From Acutalibacteraceae bacterium (lineage in GTDB: Bacteria > Bacillota > Clostridia > Oscillospirales > Acutalibacteraceae): a stretch of DNA of 64,000 bases. The translations under genes and the position numbers were made by a program. Below, in pieces: positions 26,398-46,589 of the stretch. The stretch covers positions 5,151 through 69,150 of the forward strand of contig JAZRMY010000011.1 in assembly GCA_045647925.1 (NCBI GenBank), given 5' to 3'. The stretch's first letter is position 1. Each line of letters starts with the position of its first letter. A model generated the notes under the pieces. The model made no database searches, was not told where the DNA came from, and was given only the letters and a program-made list of their open reading frames with translations.

Positions 26398-27252
26398 ATG
26401 GCAGGTTTTTTTGGTTTATTTAATTACGATAAGGAAGGTCCCGGAATTTCTAAAAACGGACCCAAAAAGAAAACATTTATTGTGTTTTTTGAAACTTTTT
26501 TCAGAAATATTTGGAAATTCATTCCTATTAATATTGTTTACTCTTTAATTTCTGTTCCCGTGCTCACAAACGGTATTGCAAATGTAGGTTTAACTAATAT
26601 TGCAAGAAATACCGCAAGAGACAAGCATTCCTTCGGTCTTAGCGACTTTTTTGAAACTATTAAAAAGAACTTCAAGCAAGCATTAATCGCGGGAATTATT
26701 AATTTCTTTGCTTACGCTTTAATTTTCTTTGCCGCTTGGTTCTATTTTTCAAGTGAGGGAACCTTCGCTACAATCGGCCTTGGAATAACCTTTGCAATGT
26801 TCTTTATATTCACGGTAATGAATTTCTTCCTTTGGACACTTATTATTACCTTCGAATTCACTTTAAAGCAGGCGTATAAGAACAGCTTTAAATTTGTTTT
26901 CATTAATATGAAATATAACTTACTTTGTATATTGGTTAATCTTTTAATCATTGCAATTAACGTTGGTATTTTATTCATTACCCAAGGTTATTGGTTTATA
27001 GCGTTAGTAATTGAAGGCATAATTTTCCTTTTAACTTATCCTGCATTTAACGCGCTTTTAATTCAATTCTGTACCTTCCCGTCAATTAAAAAGTTTATAA
27101 TCGACCCGTACTATGCGCAACATCCTGATTTGGATATTGAAAAGCGCCGCAGCTTAGGTTTAGAGGTTGAAACCAAACCTAAAAAGACCGAAAAAACTGA
27201 AGACGGCGAAGAAGCAGACGAAGAGGATTCCGACGTAATTTTCGAAGATTGA
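26398..27252 (+). CDS. YesL-family (DUF624) membrane protein with acidic C-terminal tail
   Basis: The N-terminal region (FFETFFRNIWKF...VPVLTNGIANVGL...FFETIKKNFKQ) matches the DUF624 pattern. It starts 14 nt after the previous gene. Confidence 0.7.
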   Translation: MAGFFGLFNYDKEGPGISKNGPKKKTFIVFFETFFRNIWKFIPINIVYSLISVPVLTNGIANVGLTNIARNTARDKHSFGLSDFFETIKKNFKQALIAGIINFFAYALIFFAAWFYFSSEGTFATIGLGITFAMFFIFTVMNFFLWTLIITFEFTLKQAYKNSFKFVFINMKYNLLCILVNLLIIAINVGILFITQGYWFIALVIEGIIFLLTYPAFNALLIQFCTFPSIKKFIIDPYYAQHPDLDIEKRRSLGLEVETKPKKTEKTEDGEEADEEDSDVIFED

Positions 27253-27307
27253 TTTTTTTGAATTTTCAAGCATATAATTCCATATATGAGTTTTGGAGTG
27301 GTGTTAT

Positions 27308-27562
27308 ATGACTTGCAGAATTGCAGACCTTCGCAACAAGCAGGTAGTTTGTGTTAAAAGCGGAGAAATTTTAGGTTATGTTTCGGATGTTGAGTTTAAT
27401 ACCGCAAACGGTAGCCTTGAATCTATAATAATTTTTGGCAAACCAAAATTAATGGGGCTTTTCGGTAAATATGAAGACATTGTAATTCCTTGGTCTGATA
27501 TAGAGGTTATCGGGCAGGAAACAATTCTTGTTAAAAACGATTCGCCTAACTGTTTAAAATAA
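27308..27562 (+). CDS. ylmC: YlmC/YmxH-family sporulation protein (PRC-barrel)
   Basis: MTCRIADLRNKQVVCVKSGEILGYVSDVEF...IPWSDIEVIG is typical of YlmC/YmxH. GGAG RBS. Confidence 0.8.
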   Translation: MTCRIADLRNKQVVCVKSGEILGYVSDVEFNTANGSLESIIIFGKPKLMGLFGKYEDIVIPWSDIEVIGQETILVKNDSPNCLK

Positions 27563-27611
27563 AATTTTGTCAATATTAAAAAATCACTTTCTGTACAAAA
27601 TAGTATAGGAA

Positions 27612-28865
27612 GTGATTTTTTTGAAATTTATAAGAAGTTTAATAAAAATATTTTTCTTTATAACTACAATTTTCTGCACATTAATTTTTTCTGCCGTTAT
27701 ATATTTAAGCGGAAATATAAACGATAATTTTAAAATTAAAAAAGGCGAAACTTTAAATATTTCCTCGCCTTTACCGGTTACTGCAGTTTATAACGGGATA
27801 AAGCTTTCACAAATAAGTAACACCAAAACAATCGGAGAAGAATTTTCGGTTGATTTAAAGGCGTTCGGTATAATTCCTGTTTCACAGGTTAAGGTTGAGG
27901 TTGTTGACGAGCTGCACGTTGCAGTTCTTGGGACACCGTTTGGTATGAAAATTTACACCAAAGGGGTTTTGGTTACCGAAATCAGTGATGTAACTACCGC
28001 AAACGGTAATCAAAATATCGCTAAAAAAGCAGGTTTAAAGCAAGGTGATTATATCGTATCGGTTGACGGTAAAAAGGTCTACACAAACGAGGATTTAGTA
28101 AGCATCGTAGAAAACAGTTGCGGTAAAGAAATAAAGCTTGAAATTATGCGTAATGATACTAAAATTTATATTAATATTACTCCTGTAAAATCAACCGATA
28201 CCGATACTTACAAAATAGGTATTTGGGTAAAGGATAGCTCGGCAGGGGTTGGCACTCTGACTTTTTACAGTCCGTCAAATAATGTTGTATGCGGCCTTGG
28301 TCACGGCATTTGCGATAACGACACGGGCGACCTTTTAAAGCTTAATTCGGGCGAAATTGTTTCAGCTGAGATTTTATCAATCGAAAAAGGTAAGGTAGGA
28401 AGCCCCGGAAAATTAACGGGTAAGCTTAATTACAAAACCTTGGGCGATATTAATCTTAATTGTGAAATAGGTGTTTATTCGCTTTTAAAGGGCAATCTAA
28501 AGTTCAATAAATTAACTGAAATAGCGCTTAAGCAAGAGGTAAAGGATGGAAAAGCAGAAATATTATGCACAATTGATAGTAACCCGCCGCAAGTATATTC
28601 TTGTAATATTAAAGTTCGCAATTCAAACTACCATTCAAAAACTCAAAATTTACTTGTAACGATAACAGACCAACGTCTTTTACAAGCAACAGGCGGTATA
28701 GTGCAGGGAATGTCGGGAAGCCCTATAATCCAGAACGGAAAACTAATCGGCGCTGTTACGCACGTTTTAGTCGACGACCCAACCAAAGGCTACGGAATCT
28801 TTGCGGAGAATATGTTGGAAACAGCTCAAAGCGTGGCAAGTGAACAATTAAAAGAGGCATCATAA
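27612..28865 (+). CDS. spoIVB: SpoIVB peptidase (stage IV sporulation signalling serine protease, S55)
   Basis: 417 aa with an N-terminal TM, a PDZ region, catalytic GLGHGI and [20 protein letters not shown]. The start may instead be the TTG at 27621. Confidence 0.9.
   Translation: MIFLKFIRSLIKIFFFITTIFCTLIFSAVIYLSGNINDNFKIKKGETLNISSPLPVTAVYNGIKLSQISNTKTIGEEFSVDLKAFGIIPVSQVKVEVVDELHVAVLGTPFGMKIYTKGVLVTEISDVTTANGNQNIAKKAGLKQGDYIVSVDGKKVYTNEDLVSIVENSCGKEIKLEIMRNDTKIYINITPVKSTDTDTYKIGIWVKDSSAGVGTLTFYSPSNNVVCGLGHGICDNDTGDLLKLNSGEIVSAEILSIEKGKVGSPGKLTGKLNYKTLGDINLNCEIGVYSLLKGNLKFNKLTEIALKQEVKDGKAEILCTIDSNPPQVYSCNIKVRNSNYHSKTQNLLVTITDQRLLQATGGIVQGMSGSPIIQNGKLIGAVTHVLVDDPTKGYGIFAENMLETAQSVASEQLKEAS
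28711..28723 (+). repeat. Left copy of the 13-nt direct repeat TGTCGGGAAGCCC (inside spoIVB)
   Basis: An identical 13-mer recurs at 31596-31608. Similarity between the two spoIVB 3' regions begins exactly here. Confidence 0.6.
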
Positions 28866-28870
28866 CCTTA

Positions 28871-28994
28871 CCTTCCTCTGACGAGGAAGGGGTACCGCTT
28901 GCGGTGGAAGGAGAGAAAATTCAAAATCTCTCCCTCAGTCTTTTGCTTAGCAAAATCCAGCTCCCTCGTCAGAGGGAGCCTTTTTATGTTTTTT
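28871..28994 (+). other. Palindrome-rich structured element ending in an intrinsic terminator
   Basis: Five consecutive hairpins. The first (CCTTCCTC-TGAC-GAGGAAGG, 28871-28890) and last (GCTCCCTC-GTCA-GAGGGAGC, 28960-28979, followed by a T tract) are inverted copies of each other, with compensatory stem changes. Confidence 0.6.
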
Positions 28995-29015
28995 AAAATG
29001 TGTATATATTTATAA

Positions 29016-29044
29016 TTGAAAAAGATGTTTAATTGATATATAAT
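29016..29044 (+). promoter_or_regulatory. Sigma-A type promoter of the two-gene islet
   Basis: TTGAAA-17 nt-TATAAT, 25 nt upstream of the ATG at 29070. Confidence 0.55.
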
Positions 29045-29069
29045 ATAAAAAAGGGGTGCAAGGATTTTT

Positions 29070-30305
29070 ATGTTTAAAAGATTGTTGACATTTTTTGTTG
29101 TTATATTGATAGTATTTTCTTTTTCTATATCGGTTACTGCTGAAAGTACAAATACATATAAAGATTCTGTTACTGGAATTTCGTTCACTATTCCACAAGG
29201 TTGGAATGAAGCACCATTAAATGAGGAAAGAGAATATATTAAAGTTAAATATTTACCTGAAAATAACGACGGTGCATCAATTCAATTTGGTTATGCTGAT
29301 ATATGGGGACAAATGTCAGATAGTGATAAAGTCGGTTATTCACGTTCTGATTTTAATCATTCTGCAATAATGGAAAGCTTTACAAAAGAAGAAATACTAC
29401 AAATGATAGGCTATGATAGCTTTGGCGCTGAAATAGATACTGCATACTATAACGGAATTGAATATCTGGAAATAACTATTGATACAGAAATGTCGATTTT
29501 TGATGTTTCCGCCGATGTAACAATGATTACACTCTTGAGATTTGATAACGGATATTGGTATCAATTTGTTTACGGTGATATGGATGAAAAAAGTCACTAC
29601 CAAGAATTTGAAACAATGATTAATAGTCTAGAGTATCCATCTGTCACTAAAACAAGTAATGAAATCATAGATATTGATAGTGATGGTAATTTACAATTTA
29701 ATTTTTCAAATTTAATTTTAAGTTTAGTTATTACAATAGCCGTGTATTCCTTACCTATAATTATTTATAGATACGCAATAAAAAAACAACCATTGCCTGA
29801 AAAGAAAGCTAAAAAGATAACGATTATCTATGCCATTGTTGCTTTTTTCGTTATGGCAATTTTACTTGGCGGTGCACCTGGGGGAGCAATTATACTATGG
29901 AGTTTTGTTAATTACAAGGTTTTAACAACTTCAAATAAAAATGATATTGGCTTAAAATATGAAATATCTGATGATGAAATTAATCAAGAAACAGATTTTA
30001 AAAAAGTGACTGAGGAAAATATTGCCATTACCGAAAATAAAAATGAAGAAGATGAGATTTTTGTTGACGGATTTGAGGTAAAGGAACTTGAAGAATGTGC
30101 ATTAGAAAATGAATCTATATTACAATTGAATGAACCTGAAAAAGCGGATTATGAAGTTAAATCACCAATCCCACAAAAAGAGATATTCAATAACAAAGAA
30201 ACTCCAAAAGTTTTATTCTGCCGTAAATGTGGGACAAGACTTTTAGACGACAGTGATTTTTGTCACAAGTGTGGTTTAAGGGTTATAAAGGAGGATATTA
30301 AATGA
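29070..30305 (+). CDS. Membrane protein: signal peptide, ectodomain, TM region, acidic linker, C-terminal zinc ribbon
   Basis: 411 aa. N-terminal hydrophobic leader ending VTAES, hydrophobic segments around residues 215-285, and C-terminal CRKCG-x11-CHKCG. Confidence 0.7.
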   Translation: MFKRLLTFFVVILIVFSFSISVTAESTNTYKDSVTGISFTIPQGWNEAPLNEEREYIKVKYLPENNDGASIQFGYADIWGQMSDSDKVGYSRSDFNHSAIMESFTKEEILQMIGYDSFGAEIDTAYYNGIEYLEITIDTEMSIFDVSADVTMITLLRFDNGYWYQFVYGDMDEKSHYQEFETMINSLEYPSVTKTSNEIIDIDSDGNLQFNFSNLILSLVITIAVYSLPIIIYRYAIKKQPLPEKKAKKITIIYAIVAFFVMAILLGGAPGGAIILWSFVNYKVLTTSNKNDIGLKYEISDDEINQETDFKKVTEENIAITENKNEEDEIFVDGFEVKELEECALENESILQLNEPEKADYEVKSPIPQKEIFNNKETPKVLFCRKCGTRLLDDSDFCHKCGLRVIKEDIK

Positions 30306-31408
30306 TTTGCAAGCAGTGTAATAACAATGTGCCTAACGATAGTGAATATTGCCCGTTTTGTGGAAATGTTGTTGAAAAGGTAATTGTTGAAACAAATCCT
30401 GTTTCGGATGTAGATAAGGGATATACATATCTTGAATTAAAAGAATGGGAAAAAGCTAAAGAGATATTTGATTTTGCCATCGTGAATAATGATAATAAGG
30501 CAAAAGCGTATATTGGAAGATTATTAGCGAAACTTAAATTATCTGATTTAGTGAGTCTTTCTTCCGTAAATAAAAAACTTACTAAATTTGATGATTTTAA
30601 AATGGCTATTAAATATGCTGATGAAAATTATAAGCAACAACTTAAAAAGTGTTATTCTTTAGTTGAAGAGAAAATTAATCAAAAGAAAGCGAAATCTAAA
30701 ATAAGAGCAATTATATCTTCGATTTCTTGTGTATCATTGATTGTATTACTCGTACTGACTTATTTCGTTTTCATTCCGTTGGGAAGATTTTCATATTATA
30801 AAAACCTTTTATCTAATGGAAATATTGAAAAGGCGAGTAAATCATTTTCCAATAGCGAATGGTTTGAATTTAACGAAAAAGCGGAAGGACTTTTTTATAA
30901 TAAAGGTGTTTCTCTTGTAGAAAACAAAGATTATAAAAACGCAGAATTCTGCTTTGATATAACTAAAGATTTTAAAGATTCATATAATTATTATAATTAT
31001 TGCAAAGGTAATCGGTTACTATTAGAAAAAAACATAACTGCTTATACATATTTCTCTAATTGCAAGAATTTCTCTGATACAAAAAATTTAATTAAGGAAA
31101 CATCATGGCTTAATACTATTGAACTTTTACAAGGAACGTGGCATTTAGAATCATCAGAAAAAGAAACAAAAAGCCACTCTAATTCAAATAAAACAGACGA
31201 GAAAATAAAGGGTAGAGGCAGCGCACAAGCTATATATATTCCCATCTATACTATCGATGTTACAATAACATTTAATGGAATTGAAAAATTGAAACTTTTA
31301 GATAATGGGAAAATTGGTTATAAAGAATATTCTGACGAACATAGTGAAATTAAAATAATCAATGATTCTAAAATAGAAATTTTTGGTAACATATACAGTA
31401 AAGAATAA
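30302..31408 (+). CDS. Membrane protein: N-terminal zinc ribbon, helical-repeat region, single TM, C-terminal ectodomain
   Basis: 368 aa, with CKQC-x11-CPFCG at the N-terminus and the TM IISSISCVSLIVLLVLTYFVFIPL. ATGA stop/start overlap with the upstream gene. Confidence 0.7.
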   Translation: MICKQCNNNVPNDSEYCPFCGNVVEKVIVETNPVSDVDKGYTYLELKEWEKAKEIFDFAIVNNDNKAKAYIGRLLAKLKLSDLVSLSSVNKKLTKFDDFKMAIKYADENYKQQLKKCYSLVEEKINQKKAKSKIRAIISSISCVSLIVLLVLTYFVFIPLGRFSYYKNLLSNGNIEKASKSFSNSEWFEFNEKAEGLFYNKGVSLVENKDYKNAEFCFDITKDFKDSYNYYNYCKGNRLLLEKNITAYTYFSNCKNFSDTKNLIKETSWLNTIELLQGTWHLESSEKETKSHSNSNKTDEKIKGRGSAQAIYIPIYTIDVTITFNGIEKLKLLDNGKIGYKEYSDEHSEIKIINDSKIEIFGNIYSKE

Positions 31409-31495
31409 TACTTAAACAAGGGTTACGATTCTGCGTCTTAATTTGTTTGTCCTAAAATATAACGCATACCTTAAAATTTCAATTTCATATAATAC

Positions 31496-31528
31496 AAAGA
31501 AATCGTGCCTAACAGGCGCGGTTTCTTT
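31496..31528 (+). terminator. Long hairpin terminator-like structure after the islet genes
   Basis: AAAGAAATCGTGCC-TAACA-GGCGCGGTTTCTTT, a 14-bp stem including two G-U pairs. Confidence 0.5.
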
Positions 31529-31595
31529 GCGTTTAAGGGGGAAATTAGAAAATAATCGTTATAAAAACCATGTTGTATCCTGCTTGACATACTAG

Positions 31596-31608
31596 TGTCG
31601 GGAAGCCC
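31596..31608 (+). repeat. Right copy of the 13-nt direct repeat TGTCGGGAAGCCC
   Basis: Identical to 28711-28723. Upstream of it the two loci share no similarity. Confidence 0.6.
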
Positions 31609-31785
31609 GATTTTGCAAAATGGTAAGCTGATTGGAGCAGTAACCCACGTCCTTGTCGACGACCCCACCATAAGACAGGGGACGGTTCTGTGTCTTGCGT
31701 TCTTGTTGATGATCCCACAAAAGGCTACGGGATTTTTGTAGAGAATATGCTCGAAACTGCTCAAAAAGTTAATGAAAATAATTAA
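31596..31785 (+). pseudogene. Two stacked, diverged remnants of a spoIVB 3' end
   Basis: 31596-31669 encodes [25 protein letters not shown] 29-nt filler follows. Then 31699-31785, in a shifted frame, encodes [28 protein letters not shown]-stop. There is no upstream catalytic part and no start codon. Confidence 0.85.
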
Positions 31786-31854
31786 CTAAAAGATGTTTTA
31801 ATTTTATAGATTGAATGTAAAAATAAGTAACTATATTTATGTAAAAAAGCGTAA

Positions 31855-31883
31855 TTGACAGTTAAAAATTAAAGTGATATATT
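31855..31883 (+). promoter_or_regulatory. Sigma-A type promoter of the GH28/SGNH gene
   Basis: TTGACA-17 nt-TATATT. Confidence 0.5.
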
Positions 31884-31915
31884 TAATTTGACATATACTA
31901 TTGTGAGGTAAATTT

Positions 31916-34117
31916 ATGAGCTATAATGTATATCCTGTTACACAAACTGAAATTAAATGCGAAGACTATATCGTTAAAATTAACGGAAAACAAGTTGAGC
32001 TTAACACCGCAAGGGTTTCTTCTTTTCCTTTTAACCGACGTTGGCCCGGTCATCAGCGAGATATAGACCAAACTCAGCTTGTGAACTTTATTTCTCTTGA
32101 AACTGATGAAGCGTTACATTTTGAAATTAAACCAATTAAACCTTTTGATAATGCTGTTATACGTCCGTTATCGCTCGGAATTGAACCTAAAATAAACGAA
32201 GACGGCATTATATCTTTTACGCTTGAAAAAAGTACTTATTTTACGGTTGAACCTTACGGAATAAACAACGCTTTACATATTTTTGCCGACCCTTTAAGTG
32301 AATATAATATTGATAAAAATGATGAAAACGTTATATATTACGGCAAAGGGGAACACGACGTTGGTCTAATAACCCTTAAAAGCAATCAAACTCTATTTAT
32401 TGATGAAGGCGCGGTTGTTTATGCTTGTGTAAATGCGGAGGATGCCGATAATATTAAAATCCTTGGCAGAGGTATTCTTGATAACAGCAAAAACAAAGAA
32501 AAGGTTTTATTCGAATATAATGCCGAAAATAATGACGCCGCAATAAATAATGTTATACGTGACTACACCGTTTTACTTAAATATTGTACAAATATAGTAA
32601 TAGAAGGAATTACAATAAGAGATTCTTTGGTTTATAACATTAAACCGTTCGCTTGTAAAGATTTAAATATATCTAACGTTAAAATTATTGGTTGTTGGCG
32701 TTATAATTCCGATGGTATTGATATGCACAATTGCGAAAACGTTCTTATTGATAACTGTTTCTTACGTACTTTTGATGATTCGATTTGTATAAAGGGTTTT
32801 GATTTCTTTGACGCGGAAGATGCCGAAAAAGCGTCAAATGAAGCAATGTACCGTAACGGAAAAAGCTACGACATTTTTAAAAACGTTCTTGTTAAAAACT
32901 GCACTATTTGGAACGATTGGAGTAAATGTCTTGAAATCGGCGCGGAAACCAGAGCAGAAGAAATGTGTAATATTATTTTTGAAGATTGTAATATAATACA
33001 CGTTACGGGTTCACCGCTTGATTGTTACAATATCGACTACGGCGATGTTCACGATATAATTTACAGAAGGATTAACGTTGAATACGATGACGTAATTTTA
33101 AAACCGCTTGGACAAAATAGCGATTCGGAAAAGTATGTAAACAAAGACCCGAATTATTCACCGAGACTTATTTGCGTAATTGTAGATTTTCATCACGAAT
33201 ATTCCGCAGGTGGTACACGCCGTGGAAAATGCCGCAATTTCTTATTTGAGGATATACGCCTTTTTGGTAAGCACGCTCCTAAAGTGCATTTTGAAGGCTA
33301 CGACCAAGAACACCAAACCAAAGATATTCTAATTAAAAATATTTATTGGAACGGTGAACTTGTCAAAGAAATTGATAAAGAGAATTTCGTTATTGGTAAG
33401 TATACCGAAAATATTACTTATGAAGCCGACGATTTATATTCGAAAATCAAGGAAAACACCGTTAGTTCTAAAAATCAGTTAAAGGACAGTCAATGCGTAC
33501 GCTTTGAAAACCTTAACGGCAAGGGAAAACGTGTATTGTTTATGGGCAATTCTATAACGCTTCACGGTATTGTTGAGTCAATTGGTTGGTACAATGAATA
33601 CGGAATGGCGGCATCAAGTAAAGATAACGACTACGTTCATCTTCTTGAAAAGAAAATTAACGAAATTATTCCCGATTCACAGTTTTGTATTTGTCAGGTT
33701 TCACCGTGGGAAAGCGAATATAAAAACGGTAAATCAAAATACCACATTTTTGAAAACGCACGTGAATTTGATGCCGATTATATTGTTATGCGCTCGGTGG
33801 AAAATTGTCCTATTGATGACTTCGACCCAAAACTATATAAAAAAGAATTGGATGATTTACTTAACTATTTAAGCAAATCAGGTAAGGCAAAAATTGTTTT
33901 AACAACAGGCTTTTGGAAACACCCCGGCGATGAAATGATTATCGAATACGGCAAAGATAAAAATTTACCCGTAGTTTATCTTGGGGATTTAGGGGAAATG
34001 GACGAAATGAAAGCAATCGGACTTTTTGAACACAGAGGCGTTTCGCATCATCCGGGCGACCTTGGAATGAAAATAATGGCAGATAGAATATTCTCTGAAT
34101 TAAAGAAAATTTTATAA
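31916..34117 (+). CDS. Fusion protein: right-handed beta-helix glycoside hydrolase (GH28-like) plus C-terminal SGNH/GDSL-type hydrolase
   Basis: 733 aa. NSDGIDMHNC and FDDSICIKG resemble the GH28 NTDGxD / GDDC(I/V) motifs. The C-terminal RVLFMGNSITLHG resembles SGNH block I. No signal peptide. Confidence 0.65.
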   Translation: MSYNVYPVTQTEIKCEDYIVKINGKQVELNTARVSSFPFNRRWPGHQRDIDQTQLVNFISLETDEALHFEIKPIKPFDNAVIRPLSLGIEPKINEDGIISFTLEKSTYFTVEPYGINNALHIFADPLSEYNIDKNDENVIYYGKGEHDVGLITLKSNQTLFIDEGAVVYACVNAEDADNIKILGRGILDNSKNKEKVLFEYNAENNDAAINNVIRDYTVLLKYCTNIVIEGITIRDSLVYNIKPFACKDLNISNVKIIGCWRYNSDGIDMHNCENVLIDNCFLRTFDDSICIKGFDFFDAEDAEKASNEAMYRNGKSYDIFKNVLVKNCTIWNDWSKCLEIGAETRAEEMCNIIFEDCNIIHVTGSPLDCYNIDYGDVHDIIYRRINVEYDDVILKPLGQNSDSEKYVNKDPNYSPRLICVIVDFHHEYSAGGTRRGKCRNFLFEDIRLFGKHAPKVHFEGYDQEHQTKDILIKNIYWNGELVKEIDKENFVIGKYTENITYEADDLYSKIKENTVSSKNQLKDSQCVRFENLNGKGKRVLFMGNSITLHGIVESIGWYNEYGMAASSKDNDYVHLLEKKINEIIPDSQFCICQVSPWESEYKNGKSKYHIFENAREFDADYIVMRSVENCPIDDFDPKLYKKELDDLLNYLSKSGKAKIVLTTGFWKHPGDEMIIEYGKDKNLPVVYLGDLGEMDEMKAIGLFEHRGVSHHPGDLGMKIMADRIFSELKKIL

Positions 34118-34120
34118 TCA

Positions 34121-34147
34121 AAAAGGCAAGTTAAAACTTGCTTTTTC
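34121..34147 (+). terminator. Intrinsic terminator
   Basis: AAAAGGCAAG-TTAAAA-CTTGCTTTTT. Confidence 0.6.
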
Positions 34148-34194
34148 GTTTTTACTGTGCTAAAATTAGAGAAAATATTTTTTCGGGTGATAAT

Positions 34195-35172
34195 ATGAGG
34201 GATTTAGGATTTGTAAGAGACGTTGTAGGCACTAAGGATGACCCTAACCACCACATTTACGAAGCAAATGACGGCATATTTGTCCGTGATGTTGTAATTG
34301 ATGCAGGTATCGGCAAAGAGGTTACAATTGGTATTGTAAGTGATTTACACCTTAATTACGTAAATCAACAAGACTTTGACGAAGCAAACCCTGTTGTAAT
34401 GGCTTCTTATGAGCGCCGCAAATGGCTCGCGGGTGGCGAATCTGTACCGATGGCAAAAAGATGCTTAGAAGCAATTTCCGACTGTGACCAGATGATTGTT
34501 AACGGTGACACGCTTGATTTTTTAACCCACGGCGCTATGGAATTAATGGATAGGGAAGTTTGGGACAAGTACCCGAATATTTTAGCAAGCCTTGGCGGCC
34601 ACGAATGTACAAGAAGAATGCAAAGTCCCGTTGAAGACCCCACAACTATTGAATCTCGCTTTGAAGTTTTGCAAGATTATTGGAGACACGATATTCACTA
34701 TGTTTCACGTCTTGTTGGCGAAAAGGTTATTTGTGTTGTTATGAATAATAGCCAAGGAACATTTTACGACCACCAGATTGAACCTTTGAAGAAAGATATT
34801 GAATTAGCAAAAGAAAACGGTTATGTGGTTTTAGTATTCTTCCACGAACCGATTGATACCAATGACCCCAAAGACGAAGTAACAACACTTGAAATGGCGC
34901 TTTTAGTAGGTGATAAAAGCGGTTATCCTAAAAACTTCTATAACGGTATGCGACTTGGAAGTAAGGGAGCCGAAGCAAATAAAACCGTATACGAAATGAT
35001 AATTAATAACGCAGACGTTGTTAAAGCAGTTTTTGCAGGTCATAAGCACAGTGATTTTTATCTTGAAATTTTAGGACATAACAGTGACGGCACACCCGCT
35101 ATCATTCCACAATACGTTACAACCGCAACCGCTTATCAACGTGGACATTTACTTCGCGCTACCGTTAAATAA
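34195..35172 (+). CDS. Calcineurin-like metallophosphoesterase
   Basis: Motifs VSDLH, NGDTLDF, GGHE, FFHEP and AGHKH. I prefer the ATG at 34195 because the track start at 34138 lies inside the upstream terminator. Confidence 0.75.
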   Translation: MRDLGFVRDVVGTKDDPNHHIYEANDGIFVRDVVIDAGIGKEVTIGIVSDLHLNYVNQQDFDEANPVVMASYERRKWLAGGESVPMAKRCLEAISDCDQMIVNGDTLDFLTHGAMELMDREVWDKYPNILASLGGHECTRRMQSPVEDPTTIESRFEVLQDYWRHDIHYVSRLVGEKVICVVMNNSQGTFYDHQIEPLKKDIELAKENGYVVLVFFHEPIDTNDPKDEVTTLEMALLVGDKSGYPKNFYNGMRLGSKGAEANKTVYEMIINNADVVKAVFAGHKHSDFYLEILGHNSDGTPAIIPQYVTTATAYQRGHLLRATVK

Positions 35173-35190
35173 AAAAATTTAAAATTTCAC

Positions 35191-35219
35191 TTGAATTTAT
35201 AAGAAATTTATGGTAATAT
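35191..35219 (+). promoter_or_regulatory. Sigma-A type promoter of the riboswitch leader
   Basis: TTGAAT-17 nt-TAATAT. Confidence 0.55.
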
Positions 35220-35226
35220 ATTACCA

Positions 35227-35309
35227 ATGAGGGAGTAGCAAGCGTTACTTACGTAACAAGTCAACATTCCTGACTTTTTGTCTGGCTTGTTTTAAATTGC
35301 GAGACTCAT
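35227..35309 (+). promoter_or_regulatory. Probable yybP-ykoY (Mn2+) riboswitch aptamer
   Basis: AUGAG-GGAGUAGC...GGCUUG...GCGAGA-CUCAU. The P1 pairing AUGAG/CUCAU brackets the conserved GGGAGUAGC and GC(A/G)AGAC blocks remembered from the L. lactis aptamer. The central helices are shorter than in that reference. Confidence 0.55.
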
Positions 35310-35352
35310 GTATAACATTAGCTATGCATGGTGTCTGAATATTAAATATTTT

Positions 35353-35393
35353 ACCCCAAGTATAGCAAAAGTTATACTTGGGGTTATTTTTAT
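35353..35393 (+). terminator. Leader terminator (expression platform of the putative Mn2+ riboswitch)
   Basis: ACCCCAAGTATA-GCAAAAGT-TATACTTGGGGT, a perfect 12-bp stem plus T tract, 40 nt before the LOG start codon. Confidence 0.8.
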
Positions 35394-35432
35394 AAAATTT
35401 TTTATTATACTATTTATGAAAGGAGTAATTTT

Positions 35433-36014
35433 ATGAAAATATGTGTATTTGGTGCTGCTAGCTATGAGATTAACGAAAAGTATATCAAGTTAGTTGAAGA
35501 GTTAGGCGAATTATTGGCAAAACGTGGCCACGAATTAGTTTTCGGTGCGGGCGGTAACGGACTTATGGGCGCTGCAGCGAGAGGCGTAAGAAAACAAAAC
35601 GGCAAGATTTACGGTATTATTCCGTCATTCTTCCGCGATGAAACCATTGAAGCAATTTACGATAAATGCGACCAATTGATTTTCACCGAAACAATGGCGC
35701 AAAGAAAAACCAAAATGGAAGATTTGGCAGATGCTTTTATAATAGTCCCCGGTGGAATTGGTACCTTCGAAGAATTTTTCGAGGTTTTAACCCTTAAGCA
35801 GTTGGGAAGGCACACGAAACCAATCGTAATTTACGATATTAACGGCTATTATGAAAAGCTTGAAGAATTTCTTGATTTTTCAATAAGCGAAAAATTTATA
35901 AAGGATAATTGCAAACAACTTTACGGATACGAAAATGACCCCATAAAAGTTCTCGATTATATTGAAAATGATAAGCAAATTAAATTTGACGTTCACGAAA
36001 TGAAACAAGGTTAA
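35433..36014 (+). CDS. LOG-family protein (TIGR00730 Rossmann fold; nucleotide 5'-monophosphate nucleosidase type)
   Basis: 193 aa with GGGNGLMG and the PGGIGTFEE signature. Confidence 0.85.
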   Translation: MKICVFGAASYEINEKYIKLVEELGELLAKRGHELVFGAGGNGLMGAAARGVRKQNGKIYGIIPSFFRDETIEAIYDKCDQLIFTETMAQRKTKMEDLADAFIIVPGGIGTFEEFFEVLTLKQLGRHTKPIVIYDINGYYEKLEEFLDFSISEKFIKDNCKQLYGYENDPIKVLDYIENDKQIKFDVHEMKQG

Positions 36015-36031
36015 TTTTGGAGGAATAAAAA

Positions 36032-38644
36032 TTGTTATTTCATAATTTATCAAAAGAAAAGGTTTTAGAAAAACTAGCGACCGACGAAAAGAACGGTCTG
36101 TCACAAAAACAAATTACCGAATTAAGAGAAAAATTTGGGTTTAACAAGCTTAACGAGAAAAAGAAGAAAACAACCTTTCAACGCTTTGCAGAACAGTTTA
36201 AGGATGTTATGATTTTAATTCTTTTGGTTGCGGCGGCTGTTTCATTTGTTATTGCTTGTATTGAAGGTAACCCAAAAGAATTTTTTGAACCGTTACTTAT
36301 TCTTTTAATTGTTGTATTGAATGCAATTATGGGCGTTATGCAAGAAAGCAAGGCAGAAAAGGCGCTTGATGCTTTGAAAAATATGTCTGCGCCGCACGCA
36401 CGTGTTATACGTGACGGTAAAGAAACCGTTATTGATGCTGCCCAGCTTGTTCCCGGTGATATTATTAAGCTTGAAGCAGGGGACTTTGTTCCGGCAGATG
36501 CAAGACTTTTGCATAGCGTTAGCCTTAAATCCGAAGAATCTGCACTTACGGGTGAATCAGTTCCAAGTGAAAAGGATGCAAGTCTAGAAGTTGCGGAAAA
36601 TGCTCCGATAGGCGATAGAACCAATATGGTATTTTCGGGTTGTACAATTACCTACGGTACCGCTATCGCAGTCGTAACTGCAACCGGTATGGATACCGAA
36701 ATGGGTAAAATTGCAAACCTTTTAGATAGCGAAACCGAAACCCAGACCCCGTTACAGCAAAAACTCGCTCAGCTTGGTAAATATTTGGGTATTGTTGCGC
36801 TTGCGGCTTGCGGTATTATCTTTATTATCGGTGTTCTTAACAGTATTCCTGCGCTTGAAATATTTATGACTTCGGTATCACTTGCTGTATCTGCTATACC
36901 CGAAGGCTTACCCGCAATTGTTACAATTGTACTTTCAATCGGTGTACAGCGTATGGTTAAGAAAAATGCTCTTATCCGCCGTTTGCCCGCAGTTGAAACC
37001 CTTGGTAGTGCATCGGTTATCTGTTCGGATAAAACAGGTACATTAACCCAAAACCGTATGACACTTACTAAGGCCTATGTTGACGGCAAGGATGTTACCG
37101 ACATACCATATAAAAACAACGATGACGTTAATTTATTGTTACAGTATGCCGCACTTTGTTGTGATGGCTCTGTAATATTTGAAGACGGCAAGGAAGAACA
37201 CATAGGCGACCCAACCGAAACTGCAATTATTTATGCGGCGCATAAAGCAGGTATGCCTAAAGATGAAATTAATGAGAAATATCCCCGTCTTGCAGAAATT
37301 CCTTTCGATTCTGACAGAAAGTTAATGACAACCGTAAATAAAATTGACGGTAAAAACGTTGTTATTGTAAAGGGCGCTTTCGATATGATGGCGCAAAGAT
37401 GTGTTGCAGGTAACCTTGAAAAAGGCAAAGAAATTACCGAAGAAATGAGCCGTAATGCTTTACGTGTTTTAGCAGTAGGTTATAAGGTAATAGATAATGT
37501 ACCCGAAAATCCGACAAGTGAAGAGCTTGAAAACGGTCTTACCTTTATGGGTCTTGTTGGTATGATTGACCCGCCGCGTCCTGAAGCTCGTGAAGCTGTA
37601 GCACTTTGCAGACGTGCAGGTATTAAGCCTGTTATGATTACGGGTGACCACGTTGTAACTGCATCTGCTATTGCAAAAGAACTTGGTATTTTACTTGAAG
37701 GCGATATGGCTATAACAGGCGCTGAACTTGACGCTATGACCGACCGTGAACTTGACAGTATGGTTGAAAAAATATCTGTTTATGCACGTGTTTCACCTGA
37801 AAACAAAATACGTATTGTAAAGGCTTGGCAAAGAAAAGAACAGGTTGTTTCTATGACTGGTGACGGCGTAAACGATGCGCCTGCCCTTAAAGCTGCCGAT
37901 ATTGGTTGTGCTATGGGTATAACCGGTACAGACGTTGCTAAGGGTGCCGCTGATATGACCCTTACAGACGATAACTTTGCAACAATTGTTGACGCTGTAA
38001 GAGAGGGTAGAGGCATCTATGCTAACATTAAAAAGGTTGTAGGCTTCTTACTTGGTACAAATATAGGAGAAGTTATTACTGTATTTGTTGCTATGCTTTT
38101 ATGGCACGAAACTCCGCTTTTATCTATGCAGTTATTATGGATTAACCTTGTAACTGACTCACTTCCTGCAATTGCGCTCGGTATGGAAGCGGTTGAAAAA
38201 GATGTTATGGACAGAAAACCCAAGCCCAAGAACGAAAGCATTTTCGCACACGGCTTTGGTATCAGAGTAATTTTACAAGGTGTAATGTTTGCGGCGCTCA
38301 CATTATTTGCTTACTTCTACGGTAAAACTGTTGTTGGTACAACTGAAGCAGGTCAAACAATGGCATTTATTGTTTTAGCGCTTTCACAGGTTGTTCAGGT
38401 ATTCAATATGCGAAGTGAACATTCGTTATTTAAAATTGGTTTCTTTACAAACAAAAACCTTAACCTTGCGGCACTTGCATCCTTCTTGCTTGTTTTAGTT
38501 GTATTATTTACACCTGTAAGAATTGCATTTAATATTACTTTATTACCTCTTGGTATGTATTTAATCGCGTTAGGACTTGTAATTGTTCCGTTATTTGTTA
38601 TGGAAATTTCAAAGGCTATCGGACTAATTAAGCACAAACATTAA
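36032..38644 (+). CDS. P-type cation-transporting ATPase, type IIA (Ca2+/Mn2+ pump family)
   Basis: 870 aa with TGES, DKTGTLT, TGDGVNDAPALK and ten predicted TM helices. TTG start 8-9 nt after GGAGG. Confidence 0.9.
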   Translation: MLFHNLSKEKVLEKLATDEKNGLSQKQITELREKFGFNKLNEKKKKTTFQRFAEQFKDVMILILLVAAAVSFVIACIEGNPKEFFEPLLILLIVVLNAIMGVMQESKAEKALDALKNMSAPHARVIRDGKETVIDAAQLVPGDIIKLEAGDFVPADARLLHSVSLKSEESALTGESVPSEKDASLEVAENAPIGDRTNMVFSGCTITYGTAIAVVTATGMDTEMGKIANLLDSETETQTPLQQKLAQLGKYLGIVALAACGIIFIIGVLNSIPALEIFMTSVSLAVSAIPEGLPAIVTIVLSIGVQRMVKKNALIRRLPAVETLGSASVICSDKTGTLTQNRMTLTKAYVDGKDVTDIPYKNNDDVNLLLQYAALCCDGSVIFEDGKEEHIGDPTETAIIYAAHKAGMPKDEINEKYPRLAEIPFDSDRKLMTTVNKIDGKNVVIVKGAFDMMAQRCVAGNLEKGKEITEEMSRNALRVLAVGYKVIDNVPENPTSEELENGLTFMGLVGMIDPPRPEAREAVALCRRAGIKPVMITGDHVVTASAIAKELGILLEGDMAITGAELDAMTDRELDSMVEKISVYARVSPENKIRIVKAWQRKEQVVSMTGDGVNDAPALKAADIGCAMGITGTDVAKGAADMTLTDDNFATIVDAVREGRGIYANIKKVVGFLLGTNIGEVITVFVAMLLWHETPLLSMQLLWINLVTDSLPAIALGMEAVEKDVMDRKPKPKNESIFAHGFGIRVILQGVMFAALTLFAYFYGKTVVGTTEAGQTMAFIVLALSQVVQVFNMRSEHSLFKIGFFTNKNLNLAALASFLLVLVVLFTPVRIAFNITLLPLGMYLIALGLVIVPLFVMEISKAIGLIKHKH

Positions 38645-38646
38645 TC

Positions 38647-38682
38647 AAAAAACACTTCCGTGAAAAATCGGAAGTGTTTTTT
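38647..38682 (+). terminator. Intrinsic terminator
   Basis: AAAAAACACTTCCG-loop-CGGAAGTGTTTTTT. Confidence 0.85.
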
Positions 38683-38704
38683 GATAAAAACTTTAATATA
38701 ACTG

Positions 38705-38733
38705 TTGACAAATATAAGCATTAGTAGTATAAT
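38705..38733 (+). promoter_or_regulatory. Sigma-A type promoter of the yerC-like/his operon
   Basis: Perfect TTGACA-17 nt-TATAAT. Confidence 0.7.
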
Positions 38734-38776
38734 TCATTACATTAGTTAAGTAAAGTGTTTTTAAAAGGAGAAAATT

Positions 38777-39067
38777 ATGAGTAATTGGCATAGTAAAAGC
38801 ACAGATGAACTTTGCAAGGCATTACTTTCACTTGAAAATATTGATGAATGCTACGCTTTTTTAGAAGATATTTGTACAATTAAGGAAGTACTTGATATTT
38901 CACAAAGACTTGATGTTGCGAAAATGTTAAAAGACGGCATAAGCTATACGAAAATTGCAACCGCAACTGGTGCAAGCTCTGCAACAATTAGTCGTGTAAG
39001 CAAATGCTGTGAATACGGCACAGGCGGATACAAAACTGTTATAGACAGATTAAACGGAGAAAAATAA
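38777..39067 (+). CDS. YerC/YecD-family TrpR-like DNA-binding protein
   Basis: 96 aa. LLSLENIDECYAFLEDICTIKE...ISQRL...SYTKIATATGASSATISRV matches the YerC/YecD HTH family. One-nt stop/start overlap with hisZ. Confidence 0.8.
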   Translation: MSNWHSKSTDELCKALLSLENIDECYAFLEDICTIKEVLDISQRLDVAKMLKDGISYTKIATATGASSATISRVSKCCEYGTGGYKTVIDRLNGEK

Positions 39068-40173
39068 TGATAGACAGTAAAATTTTAAAAAGCGAAGAAA
39101 AAGCAATTTTTGCTTTAAGAAGTCTTTATAAAAAATACGGTTATAAACCTTTTAAAATGTCTAAATTCGAAGAATACGAATTTTACATAAGAAATAAGGA
39201 TTTTTTGATAAGTGACAGAATTATTACCTTTAATGATACAAACGGCAAGCTTTTAGCCTTAAAGCCTGACGTTACGCTTTCGATTATTAAAAATTGTGAA
39301 GATGTAAAGGGCGAAAAGCAAAAGGTATTTTATAACGAAAATGTTTACCGTATTTCTGAAAACACACACAGATACAAGGAAATTATGCAAGCAGGTCTTG
39401 AATGCATAGGAGATATTGATTTATACGATATTTATGAAACTGTATCTCTAGCTTCGCAAAGTCTTTCTTTGATATCAGAGGATTTTGTTTTGGAAATTTC
39501 GCATTTGGGTGTTCTTTCTGCAGTTATTGATTATGTTTGTGATAATAAAACCTTTAAAGCTAAGGCGATGGATTTAATTGCAAATAAGAATGCTCACGAC
39601 CTTAAAAGACTTTGCAATGAATACTCGATAAACAATGATAATACTACATTAATTTGTAATTTTATTTCTGTTTACGGCGAAAGAAATAAAGTTATATCCG
39701 AGCTTGAAAAGCTTTGCGGTGAAATAGTTAGAGATACTTTAATAGAACTAAAAACTATATCTGCAATGCTTGATAATTTACCGTTTAGTTCAAAAATTGT
39801 TTTTGATTTTTCTGTTGTAAATGATATGAACTATTATAACGGATTTGTTTTTAAAGGCTTTATTAACGGTATTTGCGACGGTATTCTTGCCGGCGGACAG
39901 TATGATAACTTAATGAAGAAAATGGATAGAAAATCAGGTGCGGTTGGTTTTGCGCTATACCTTGATTTACTAGAGCAGTTACCAAAAGAAAAAACCGATT
40001 TCGACGTTGAAGTTTTACTTATATATGATGAAAAATGTGATAATTTCGAAATAGCTAAAACTGTTGATAGTATTATTAAATCGGGTAAAACCGTAACGGC
40101 GCAAAAATGTATTCCAACAAAACTTCGCTATAAAGAAATTATTGATTTAAGAAAGGAAGGGTATAATGCTTAA
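39067..40173 (+). CDS. hisZ: ATP phosphoribosyltransferase regulatory subunit (HisRS paralogue)
   Basis: 368 aa HisRS-like core without an anticodon-binding domain, directly upstream of the short-form hisG. Confidence 0.85.
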   Translation: MIDSKILKSEEKAIFALRSLYKKYGYKPFKMSKFEEYEFYIRNKDFLISDRIITFNDTNGKLLALKPDVTLSIIKNCEDVKGEKQKVFYNENVYRISENTHRYKEIMQAGLECIGDIDLYDIYETVSLASQSLSLISEDFVLEISHLGVLSAVIDYVCDNKTFKAKAMDLIANKNAHDLKRLCNEYSINNDNTTLICNFISVYGERNKVISELEKLCGEIVRDTLIELKTISAMLDNLPFSSKIVFDFSVVNDMNYYNGFVFKGFINGICDGILAGGQYDNLMKKMDRKSGAVGFALYLDLLEQLPKEKTDFDVEVLLIYDEKCDNFEIAKTVDSIIKSGKTVTAQKCIPTKLRYKEIIDLRKEGYNA

Positions 40174-42065: not shown

Positions 42066-42067
42066 AA

Positions 42068-45804: not shown

Positions 45805-45807
45805 TAA

Positions 45808-46458: not shown

Positions 46459-46472
46459 ACATTTTTAGTTTT

Positions 46473-46507: not shown

Positions 46508-46529
46508 TGCATAAAATTCAATAATATGC

Positions 46530-46558: not shown

Positions 46559-46589
46559 ATAAACTGTATAAATATATAAGAGGTGCATT

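Follow-up and report, generated by a model that had tools for sequence, protein, structure and literature searches.

In staphylococci, SCCmec and pseudo-SCC elements occupy the 3' end of rlmH (orfX), use Ccr serine recombinases and form arrays separated by repeats of the site; SCC cassettes that lack ccr are mobilised in trans. Many Dehalococcoides islands at ssrA are devoid of an integration module and were read as cis-mobilisable, spreading by accretion (McMurdie et al. 2011, PMC3146451). ICESt1, ICESt3 and CIMEs of Streptococcus thermophilus are found at the fda 3' end, and accretion-mobilisation has been described for them (Pavlovic 2004, Bellanger 2011, as summarised in PMC5704250). Other streptococcal ICEs carry serine integrase triplets and target mutT, traG and hsdM (Ambroset et al. 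2016, PMC4701971). Intervening elements are reported in sporulation genes i.e. skin in sigK, SPbeta in spsM, gin in gerE and yin in yabG (PMC5595907, PMC10747680). Here we propose, with a probability of about 0.8, that repeated spoIVB 3' ends mark the attachment site (attB) of conjugative elements with three tandem large serine recombinases (LSRs), plus stacked cassettes.

The array downstream of spoIVB

The window, i.e. the whole stretch of 64,000 nucleotides analysed, contains the following features at its spoIVB locus.

27612..28865, + strand: intact spoIVB, 417 codons from GTG (414 aa in databases; TIGR02860)
28690..28735, + strand: attB-like site within the intact gene, centre TG at 28711-28712, codon 367 ATG / codon 368 TCG (catalytic serine)
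28710..28865, + strand: X0, the 3' end functional now, codons 367-417 and stop; mosaic
28866..28990, + strand: five-hairpin structured element, fold z = -4.4, ending in the spoIVB terminator
28960-28979 and T run, + strand: spoIVB terminator (terminator scan)
29016..29044, + strand: promoter-like site of the cassette genes, TTGAAA-17-TATAAT, 11/12 positions, a consensus match only
29070..30305, + strand: cassette gene 1, 411-aa membrane protein with C-terminal zinc ribbon (Pfam Zn_Ribbon_1)
30302..31408, + strand: cassette gene 2, 368 aa, N-terminal zinc ribbon and TPR (Pfam)
31443..31466, + strand: motif', second upstream copy of the end motif, TTGTTTGTCCTAAAATATAACGCA, 128 nt before the P-motif
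31495..31530, + strand: terminator-like hairpin of the cassette right-end module, -23.4 kcal/mol
31571..31594, + strand: P-motif, candidate element-side half-site of attR (type 2, TGTTGTATCCTGCTTGACATACTA), single match in the window
31595..31669, + strand: X1 (remnant A), displaced, truncated 3' end, GTG and codons 368-391
31670..31698, + strand: right-end vestige of cassette 2, 29 nt, hairpin AGACAGGGGACGGTTCTGTGTCT
31699..31785, + strand: X2 (remnant B), oldest displaced 3' end, codons ~384 to stop

The gene had been described as intact in a first-pass annotation made from the sequence alone. This is borne out by a profile search, in which TIGR02860 gives 366 bits against a cutoff of 305, and by the presence of both its Peptidase_S55 and PDZ domains. 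It is not a split gene of the skin type and, being intact, needs no excision. S368 pairs in alignment with catalytic S378 of the B. subtilis SpoIVB structure 9lnf. The attB-like position is the start of the displaced spoIVB copies, and the same base is the point at which spoIVB of relatives is cut by a conjugative element (L081, L048, L105; ...GGxATG/TGAGTGTG, the slash marking the cut). The last ~30-55 nt of X0 derive from a recently exchanged cassette block, as seen in the comparison with locus L107.

The enclosed 2730 nt have a GC content of 0.297 compared to 0.361 for the window mean (0.16th percentile), the lowest of that size in the window. The first-pass description of an islet richer in AT than its flanks, with a structured element, a promoter, two coupled genes and a terminator, is thus confirmed, each part having been located, the promoter as a consensus match. 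The five-hairpin element belongs to a family repeated after spoIVB stops (copies in L073, with 95.5% identity, L038, L042, L023, L016 and L041); it shows compensatory changes in 9 of 34 pairs and has no Rfam match. Cassette gene 1, which has no match in NCBIfam or PADLOC, has homologues of 64-98% identity; in the four loci examined (window, L002, L107, L109) the gene lies directly 3' of spoIVB. It overlaps gene 2 by ATGA. Similarity of gene 2 to L002, L107 and L109 stops at 30905-31009 in all alignments; since it ends near 31007, the C-terminal part of the gene is mosaic. The arrangement with motif' is also present at the right end of an LSR element (L106) and at ~16 of the 37 sites scanned, and the right-end hairpin is common to ~10 other cassettes (kept in L002, L003, L038, L045, L052, L061, L066 and L016). 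The P-motif of the window has two substitutions at near-invariant core-proximal positions and shares 20 of its 24 bases with the motif beside the LSR triplet of L096. No recombinase was detected in the islet by Pfam and NCBIfam profile scans. The window cassette is composed of two zinc-ribbon membrane genes only, and like a CIME it has no integration or transfer genes.

The spoIVB 3' end does occur three times, in the intact gene and in two partial, synonymously diverged copies, and the codons for VLVDDPT exist in three nucleotide versions. Their identity, estimated beforehand at about three quarters with differences at third codon positions, was measured at 76% for remnant A (31596-31670 vs 28711-28785 of X0; 16 of 19 differences on third positions) and 75% for remnant B (31683-31765 vs 28748-28830 of X0; 11 of 14 over its first 22 codons). 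A search for the 13-mer TGTCGGGAAGCCC returned the two places already noticed, 28711 and 31596, and no other (chance expectation 0.01). The repeat is therefore real, but copy A starts at 31595, with GTG for ATG, rather than at 31596, and the 13-mer is not the recombination core: the junction comprises TG only, at most TGTCGGG, and the remaining bases reflect coding conservation. The supposed filler indeed measures 29 nt and contains a 6-bp inverted repeat (AAGACA...TGTCTT, folding at -10.9 kcal/mol); it is however the last trace of the right end of a second cassette, and its sequence directly precedes the end motif in L037, L043 and L056. X2 has presumably lost its own P-motif and first ~16 codons by deletion, because L037 retains hairpin, P-motif and 3' end together. 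The window array is a decayed two-cassette fossil, in the order X0, cassette 1, a degenerate attR with truncated X1, the 29-nt vestige of cassette 2 and partial X2.

Related loci, the parent element and cassette transfer

We compared ~110 related spoIVB loci. At species level, one to three extra spoIVB 3' ends or cassettes are present in 23 of 80 loci, i.e. 23 of the 58 whose downstream sequence reaches at least 2 kb. This alignment of relatives, which the first-pass annotation had proposed, shows that cassettes bounded by the motif and a displaced 3' end recur. The extra copies, found by protein similarity, are all on the same strand and start at codon 367 (369 in one alignment). Directly 5' of them lies a 24-nt motif, TGTTGGTCCTATATTGACACACTC, whose consensus was built from 43 junctions; it is 70-99% conserved while the 10 nt preceding it are not, and it stays sharp against unrelated cargo across species with only 50% identical SpoIVB. 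The same architecture is found with unrelated cargo in many species. Pfam analysis of the two window genes and of 30 cassette proteins from relatives gave diverse accessory genes and no recombinase, in agreement with the earlier suggestion of a non-autonomous or decayed element lacking one. No Phage_integrase-type protein was detected in the cassettes or elements examined, so that the locus does not belong to the tyrosine-integrase islands. A tblastn search with the LSRs of L096 detected no LSR downstream of spoIVB in any locus. In public metagenomes the attR ORF matches >2300 distinct short Peptidase_S55 sequences, and all 120 matches listed are fragments of 59-90 aa. The end motif was not found in viral contigs.

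In loci L081-L084, L048 and L105, spoIVB is cut after ATG367 (ATG/TGA...) and the inserted DNA begins with GAGTGTGTTATAATAGGACCAACA. The reverse complement of this sequence agrees with the P-motif in 21 of 24 bases and with motif' in all 24. The inserted DNA encodes NlpC/P60, PrgI and a TraG/VirB4-like P-loop protein. Split genes were observed in relatives only (P0017/P0018, 364 aa; L048; L105). In L096 and L106, at the right ends of two elements, LSR triplets (Resolvase, Recombinase, Zn_ribbon_recom) lie beside a P-motif with its 3' end and stop ~170-190 nt short of it; the scans of the window islet showed no recombinase. The larger parent with a recombinase, for which a search had been suggested, thus exists in relatives as a three-LSR element at the same site. 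In L096-L103 the right end of the LSR element is directly followed by three tandem cassettes with four 3' ends; the tandem with a cognate conjugative element, as known for CIMEs, is seen in these relatives rather than in the window. No single contig spans the whole element from split gene to LSRs, its ends being linked only via the inverted repeats. Reconstructed from separate contigs, attP would read TGTTGGTCCTATATTGACACACTC-G-TG-T-GAGTGTGTTATAATAGGACCAACA, with two half-sites whose arms are complementary at 21 of 24 positions, and TG/TGT is common to attB, attL and attR; a search of JGI metagenome contigs gave no match to the attP junction. The right border of the cassettes corresponds to attR, and the left border to the intact attB-type gene with no element left end. 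Because this left border is an intact attB-type sequence and not attL, the cassettes are not textbook CIMEs.

Within one sister species, three states of the locus were observed: no extra cassette (state A), one extra cassette (state B) and element-split, with flanks 99.5% identical. State B differs from state A by one added cassette, whose junction lies inside TGTCGGG. Its new functional 3' end departs from the old one right after ATGTCGGG, and the old 3' end and its downstream DNA are unchanged behind the cassette. Repeated insertion with a replacement end, the older end being pushed downstream, had been deduced from the window and is here seen directly. Comparisons between species indicate that cassettes move horizontally. 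The spoIVB body of the window is 47-72% (about 60%) identical to that of L107, but identity reaches 97-100% from ~28812 onward, and L107 holds a near-identical copy of the cassette; the first-pass annotation had proposed to look for other copies. Cassettes of L045 and L052 are 93.6% identical compared to 75% for spoIVB, and those of L085 and L064 are 93.1% identical while their spoIVB genes have no blastn match. Several transfer boundaries are located inside the 3' end and not at TG, so that some of the exchange is due to ordinary homologous recombination. The cassette of the window was exchanged in this way, with a junction near 28812-28835.

Proposed route and alternative readings

In the attachment-site reading, attB would lie inside spoIVB, and the crossover would fall on TG in codon 367, just before the codon for the catalytic serine. 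The ends of the autonomous element form inverted repeats of ~24 bp; on integration the element truncates spoIVB, leaving at its right junction an attR made of P-motif, G, TG and the original 3' end. A cassette consists of a complete replacement 3' end with terminator, 1-8 kb of cargo and a P-motif at its end; the newest adjoins the gene, older 3' ends being displaced downstream. The LSRs are the presumed catalysts of these events, for which the precise junction of the presence/absence polymorphism in the sister species is indirect support, and TG is the presumed central dinucleotide. Integration at an att site, as first suggested, is retained, but the enzyme is most likely a large serine recombinase and not the tyrosine integrase then implied. 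Likewise a replacement 3' end is indeed brought by the cassettes, not by the autonomous element, which has none and leaves spoIVB truncated. Accretion-mobilisation appears to be the most likely route: an element integrated upstream of a resident cassette would excise via attL and the distal attR, take the cassette to a new host, integrate there at attB and later depart via the proximal attR, the gene being then intact again with a 3' end supplied by the cassette. Homologous recombination in the conserved 3' ends also swaps cassettes between species. Precedents exist for elements with serine-integrase triplets whose insertion disrupts genes and creates repeats of 2-8 bp (PMC4701971), and for accretion and cis-mobilisation (PMC5704250, PMC3146451).

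Direct capture resembling that of integrons, in which a circle of P-motif, TG and 3' end is inserted into attB and excised likewise by an LSR in trans, without a conjugative carrier, is a possible but doubtful alternative. It agrees with the exact one-cassette difference between states A and B, where no element is present, with the position of the newest cassette, always beside the gene, and with the retention of the P-side site only; but the tandem of element and cassettes in L096 fits accretion, no cassette circle was observed, and the reaction needed, attR x attB, is outside normal LSR pairings. LSRs normally pair attP with attB only, or attL with attR given a directionality factor, and we know of no efficient LSR reaction between attR and attB. 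Recent transfer boundaries inside the 3' end (L085/L064, window/L107), together with copies whose central parts are often identical within a genome, as after gene conversion, could be produced by DNA uptake and homologous recombination only, the 3' ends acting as portable homology arms with no site-specific step. We judge this improbable as the sole process: it leaves unexplained the conserved 24-nt non-coding motif with its sharp cargo boundary, the inverted-repeat partner of the motif at split genes, the A/B junction within 7 shared bases of otherwise differing copies and the adjacency of LSR triplets.

A tyrosine-integrase island that carried the target 3' end in its attP, with the 13-mer as core, and has since lost its integrase is very improbable. 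Islands of this type usually show replacement 3' ends and direct repeats, and the 13-mer repeats exactly in the window; elsewhere, however, identity between intact and displaced copies falls short of 13 nt (codon 368 is often AGC vs TCG), no related locus examined has a tyrosine integrase, and the elements at the site have serine recombinases and inverted-repeat ends. A local duplication of the 3' end followed by divergence, without mobile DNA, is hardly credible even though the copies are close together and in direct orientation. The synonymous divergence of ~25% conflicts with such an origin, as the first-pass annotation held for a recent event, and so does the 97-100% identity of the islet to DNA of a different species; the islet also has the lowest GC of the window, and many species show the same architecture with unrelated cargo. 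The A/B junction in the sister species, the identity of cassettes across species and the match between window and L107 contradict it as well.

We consider with more reserve than the attachment-site reading, and as rather unlikely, a joint reading in which codon 367/368 is an integron-like capture platform in gut Oscillospirales, at which LSRs acting in trans directly insert and excise cassettes devoid of recombinases, and the parent is an intervening element of a forespore gene. If it were true, the protease would receive a new catalytic C-terminal module with each cassette, and the spoIVB site would be a main route of entry for genes of carbohydrate utilisation and surface proteins. spoIVB of B. 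subtilis is expressed in the forespore, whereas the intervening elements described so far are, to our knowledge, located in mother-cell genes. On this reading the parent conjugative element would be the first to interrupt a forespore-expressed sporulation gene, with its excision, and possibly transfer or reintegration, coupled to sporulation. An intervening element had been envisaged for the window as a distant prospect: it is real in relatives with a split gene and inapplicable to the window itself. The locus is not an integron in the strict sense. The syntenic upstream genes (PRC-barrel, DUF624, DUF6062) include no recombinase, the cassettes bring regulators and promoters of their own, and the end motif is a half-site, not an imperfect palindrome of the attC type.

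Comparison with known systems

The closest known systems are tandem accretion arrays i.e. Dehalococcoides ssrA islands, SCC and CIMEs, of which the spoIVB system is a variant; recombinase-less cassettes pile up at the spoIVB site across many gut Clostridia. Like it, the ssrA islands are in tandem downstream of a single-copy gene, bounded by repeats of its 3' end with a conserved short motif directly 5' of each repeat, and have integrases of the serine-recombinase family (PMC3146451). Their target is a tmRNA gene with a 20-bp repeat, whereas here it is a protein-coding sporulation gene with a complete 153-nt coding 3' end; in addition, the spoIVB autonomous element truncates the gene without a replacement end, and its recombinases form a triplet on a conjugative element. 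In the ICESt1/CIME system, modules without a recombinase likewise share a single att site with a conjugative element, in tandem array, and their spread is explained by composite excision and transfer. ICESt1 and ICESt3 however rely on a tyrosine integrase, and CIMEs retain both attL and attR, while spoIVB cassettes are associated with LSRs and have attR only on the right, with an attB-type left border. SCC shares serine recombinases, a conserved target gene with the site in its 3' end, cassette arrays and recombinase-less cassettes (see also PMC3146451). Its repeat of ~15-18 bp is at the very end of a gene that is never truncated; at spoIVB the crossover would fall at the catalytic serine, with 51 codons left before the stop, and unlike in SCC the cassettes must supply the whole C-terminal coding segment.

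The streptococcal triplet ICEs have in common with the spoIVB element three tandem LSR genes at one end, site-specific integration, disrupted genes and very short repeats; spoIVB is not reported among their targets, and cassette arrays with replacement gene ends are not described for them (Ambroset et al. 2016, PMC4701971). The likeness to skin-like elements concerns relatives (L081, L048, L105), in which a sporulation gene is split precisely by a mobile element, one that most likely carries serine recombinases. Unlike in those systems, the gene of the window is intact, and the splitting element is conjugative rather than prophage-like.

The spoIVB array of the window

The spoIVB gene (27612-28865) is intact (TIGR02860, 366 bits) and contains Peptidase_S55 and PDZ domains. 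The first-pass annotation had described three versions of its 3' end around an AT-rich islet, and all its statements on the sequence were confirmed. The 13-mer TGTCGGGAAGCCC occurs in the window only at 28711 and 31596. spoIVB codons 367-391 match remnant A (31596-31670) at 76% identity, and codons 380-407 match remnant B (31683-31765) at 75%; third codon positions account for most of the differences, 16 of 19 in remnant A and 11 of 14 (first 22 codons) in remnant B. The enclosed 2.7 kb have a GC content of 0.297 against a window mean of 0.361, the lowest of any stretch of that size. In the islet a five-hairpin element, with the spoIVB terminator at its end, is followed by a promoter-like site, by two genes for zinc-ribbon membrane proteins that overlap each other (ORF1, 29070-30305; ORF2, 30302-31408) and by a strong hairpin.

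Parts of the array, 5' to 3' (P-motif, 24-nt end motif abutting a displaced 3' end; motif', its second copy upstream)
28710-28865: functional 3' end (X0), mosaic
3' of X0: cassette 1, with structured terminator element, promoter-like site, ORF1, ORF2 and a right-end module (motif', hairpin, P-motif)
3' of cassette 1: remnant A (X1), truncated past codon 391
between X1 and X2: 29-nt piece, identical to the hairpin 5' of the end motif in three relatives' contigs (L037, L043, L056)
last part: remnant B (X2), from about codon 384 to its own stop

The 29-nt hairpin piece and the partial X2 point to two deletions: the body of a second cassette would have been lost first, then its P-motif, along with 16 codons from the start of X2. 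The P-motif of the window is substituted at two near-invariant positions (GACATACTA vs GACACACTC). The array looks fixed and decaying, a fossil array, and the attachment site (attB) inside the intact spoIVB looks normal. A search for an empty site, with a functional gene ending in ...AQKVNENN, had been proposed; no such ending was found among the homologues listed, and this tail is probably decayed. ORF2 resembles its homologues in L002, L107 and L109 only up to 30905-31009 in all three cases; its C-terminal third (31008-31408) and the non-coding DNA past it therefore have a separate origin, and the cassette is a mosaic.

The five-hairpin element (28866-28990 in the window) lies directly 3' of the stop codons of spoIVB or of displaced 3' ends. 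The window and L073 copies are 95.5% identical, the SpoIVB proteins of the two only about 50%, and compensatory changes are found in 9 of 34 predicted pairs. It corresponds to no Rfam family, and could be a mobile terminator or REP-like module, or an undescribed RNA.

Copies of the five-hairpin element in relatives' contigs
L073 11284-11371
L038 12531-12586
L042 13456-13515
L023 7531-7647
L016 13086-13216
L041 11352-11403 (reverse)

An Rfam scan of 27000-33000 (E <= 1) gave only a chance CRISPR-DR6 match within ORF2 (E = 0.76). The islet had no blastn match in plasmid and phage collections, and PADLOC and NCBIfam gave none for ORF1 and ORF2. A 407-aa gene 3' of recN, considered as a second SpoIVB paralogue, is tyrS. 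In the window spoIVB and nusB-xseA are about 18 kb apart (28866-46590), the interval comprising the islet, a GH28-like gene, a 344-aa ORF, a LOG-like gene, a P-type ATPase and the his operon. Its genes were not found in the 10-kb downstream flanks of relatives; in L016, L009 and L035, xseA and the following genes lie within 2-9 kb of spoIVB (nusB too in L016). The entire stretch may consist of piled-up insertions with decayed scars.

Displaced 3' ends and cargo in related genomes

The distribution of spoIVB 3' ends was surveyed with one genome per species, giving 80 loci, all from uncultured Acutalibacteraceae or Oscillospiraceae (SpoIVB 47-80% identical to that of the window). Upstream gene order is conserved and downstream order variable. 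In 23 of the 80 loci, one to three extra 3' ends were present within 10 kb; the copies detected all run in the same direction, and codon 367 is the first in each of them except one. The DNA between copies consists of 1-8 kb of unrelated accessory genes.

Cargo between copies
AraC regulators with sugar-acid, rhamnose or glycyl-radical-enzyme operons
GH10 and GH127 glycoside hydrolases
BspA-type surface proteins
Fic, PadR and MFS genes

Each displaced copy is directly preceded by the 24-nt motif (consensus TGTTGGTCCTATATTGACACACTC; type 2, TGTTGTATCCYNCTTGACACACTC, to which the window copy at 31571-31594 belongs). The motif is 70-99% conserved between species, and unrelated cargo lies on its left. 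Codon 367 is GTG in displaced copies whereas it is ATG in the functional gene. A second motif copy is found about 125-155 nt upstream at about 16 of 37 scanned sites, including the window (31443-31466).

Paired direct motif copies about 150 nt apart
L029: 11792 and 11940
L040: 13597 and 13749
L106: 13125 and 13279

Public metagenomes gave more than 2300 distinct short Peptidase_S55 fragment matches, and all 120 listed are fragments of 59-90 aa. Gene callers annotate the junctions between motif and displaced end (attR; L085 13044-13226 and protein fragments P0121-P0240) as 'Peptidase_S55' proteins of this size. These ORFs begin within the end motif (MCWSYIDTLVSGSP...) and run into the displaced 3' end; they are scars, not genes, and thousands are in databases. 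Assemblies often end in or just past the spoIVB 3' end (L008, L022, L041, L048, L055, L057, L058), and many P0121-P0240 contigs are shorter than 1 kb; such breaks are expected from a 150-nt repeat combined with strain heterogeneity at a hotspot. Among homologues with SpoIVB 80-88% identical (P0002-P0015) the C-terminal tails clearly differ (SVASEQLKEAS, SVADQQKLKEAS, SVAECNKLKDAS and others), a variety that fits frequent 3'-end replacement.

The process can be followed in a sister species (SpoIVB 87-88% identical to that of the window), whose flanks are 99.5% identical between samples. In state A, spoIVB is followed by an AraC/MR_MLE/SDR cassette and a displaced end. State B has in addition a 2-kb cassette (192-aa and DUF6273 genes) adjoining the gene. 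In state C, spoIVB is split by the conjugative element. The functional 3' end of state B diverges from that of state A at the base right after ATGTCGGG, and the 3' end and downstream DNA of state A are kept unchanged 3' of the P-motif. The earlier proposal that an insert brings a replacement 3' end and pushes the old one downstream is thus seen directly. Homologous recombination is an unlikely cause of this junction, because the copies share only 7 bases there.

Cassettes are far more similar between species than spoIVB is: 93.6% against 75% in L045/L052, and 93.1% in L085/L064, where spoIVB has no detectable blastn match. The window cassette is 97-100% identical to that of L107 from about 28812 to about 30600; L107 is another species, with different upstream genes and a spoIVB body only 47-72% identical. 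The left edge of the transferred block lies within the last third of the 3' end (window/L107; L085/L064), and copies within one genome often have identical centres and different edges. By both observations, the conserved 3' ends have a second role: they provide the homology needed for recombination and gene conversion.

The parent element and a probable route of cassette gain

Two truncated SpoIVB proteins of 364 aa were found among close homologues. Their contigs (L081-L084), as well as L048 and L105, have the gene split (...GGxATG|TGAGTGTGTTATAATAGGACCAACA...), with a stop right after Met367.

spoIVB split by the element
L081 11090-20194
L048 11101-11201
L105, reverse strand, first 190 nt

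The splitting DNA encodes DUF5348, NlpC/P60, PrgI and a TraG/VirB4-like P-loop protein, and is by this gene content a conjugative element. Its first 24 nt are inverted relative to the end motif, matching the P-motif at 21 of 24 positions and motif' at all 24, so that motif' repeats the left end of the element perfectly in inverted orientation. In L096 and L106 three tandem large serine recombinases (LSRs) are followed, about 170-190 nt downstream, by the motif and a 3' end; HTH and sigma-70-region-4 genes lie 5' of them, with RecD2-like, DUF3854 and ParM-like genes in addition in L106. In L096-L103 the right end of the element leads directly into three cassettes with four 3' ends. The L105 host has a far higher GC content, yet the same left end is in its spoIVB, so the element travels between distant hosts and retains its target. 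The reconstructed attP (GACACACTCGTGTGAGTGTGT, 52 bp, its ends joined from separate contigs) has inverted arms around GTGT, and attB, attL, attR and attP have only TG/TGT in common, a pattern that would be expected for LSRs. Streptococcal elements with serine-integrase triplets likewise disrupt genes and leave 2-8 bp repeats (PMC4701971). The crossover lies immediately (about one base) 5' of the codon aligned to the catalytic Ser378 of B. subtilis SpoIVB. The P-motif had no match in viral contigs, nor the reconstructed attP junction in JGI metagenome contigs.

Cassettes appear to lack recombinases: there was none among 30 scanned cassette proteins and ORF1 and ORF2, and tblastn gave no match downstream of intact spoIVB with the L096 LSRs (L001-L104) or with the proteins of the L081 element (L001-L084). 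The most economical route, with canonical reactions only, is accretion-mobilisation, a mechanism known from ICESt1/CIMEs and suggested for Dehalococcoides ssrA islands (PMC5704250, PMC3146451). An element integrated upstream of a cassette would excise by attL x distal attR, transfer with the cassette to a new host, and integrate there by attP x attB; it would then exit via attL x proximal attR, and the cassette would stay behind, its 3' end now completing the host gene. Direct capture by attR x attB is possible. For the first cassette, two origins are conceivable: rescue of a split gene by an incoming intact allele that joined illegitimately within the element, or insertion into one of the copies in a tandem duplication, with a deletion afterwards. 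Right ends with paired motifs are found in the LSR element as well as in several cassettes, and this motif'-spacer-P-motif module, common to the element and many cassettes, fits a derivation from element right ends; motif' may serve as an accessory binding site or mark an older junction.

Other readings of the repeated ends were dropped. The template repeat of a diversity-generating retroelement would call for adenine-specific differences and a reverse transcriptase, and neither is present. The resemblance to a group II intron 5' end (GUGYG) is coincidental with codons 367-368. The TTGACA of the motif, considered as a promoter of the displaced end, is accompanied by neither a properly spaced -10 box nor a ribosome-binding site. 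About one third of the displaced copies are truncated or carry stops or internal deletions (damaged in the window, L003, L037, L066, L068 and L009), which speaks against functional small ORFs.

A gene-gain hotspot compared with known islands

Full-text literature searches on spoIVB turned up no paper that connects the gene with serine recombinases, conjugative elements or intervening elements. The spoIVB site is a very common, previously undescribed gene-gain hotspot of uncultured gut and rumen Clostridia, at which sugar-utilisation operons, glycoside hydrolases, glycyl-radical enzymes and surface proteins are gained. Stable cargo can accumulate at a site whose use by a serine recombinase destroys the target, because every cassette brings a replacement gene end. 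Expression of spoIVB takes place in the forespore, where excision of the element would cure the spore; germ-line excision of these conjugative elements, tolerated or exploited, becomes a testable question. The 24-nt motif and the short 'Peptidase_S55' ORFs are now recognisable as annotation artefacts and assembly breakers, and the attB/attP pair is a candidate source of new LSR tools for genome engineering.

Like ssrA islands and SCC, the arrays consist of tandem islands that lack an integrase and lie at the serine-recombinase site of a single-copy gene. What is new is the target, spoIVB, at its catalytic-serine codon; an autonomous element that destroys the gene and cassettes that repair it by supplying a 153-nt replacement end; the attB-type left border of the cassettes; and the very wide distribution of the site in gut Oscillospirales.
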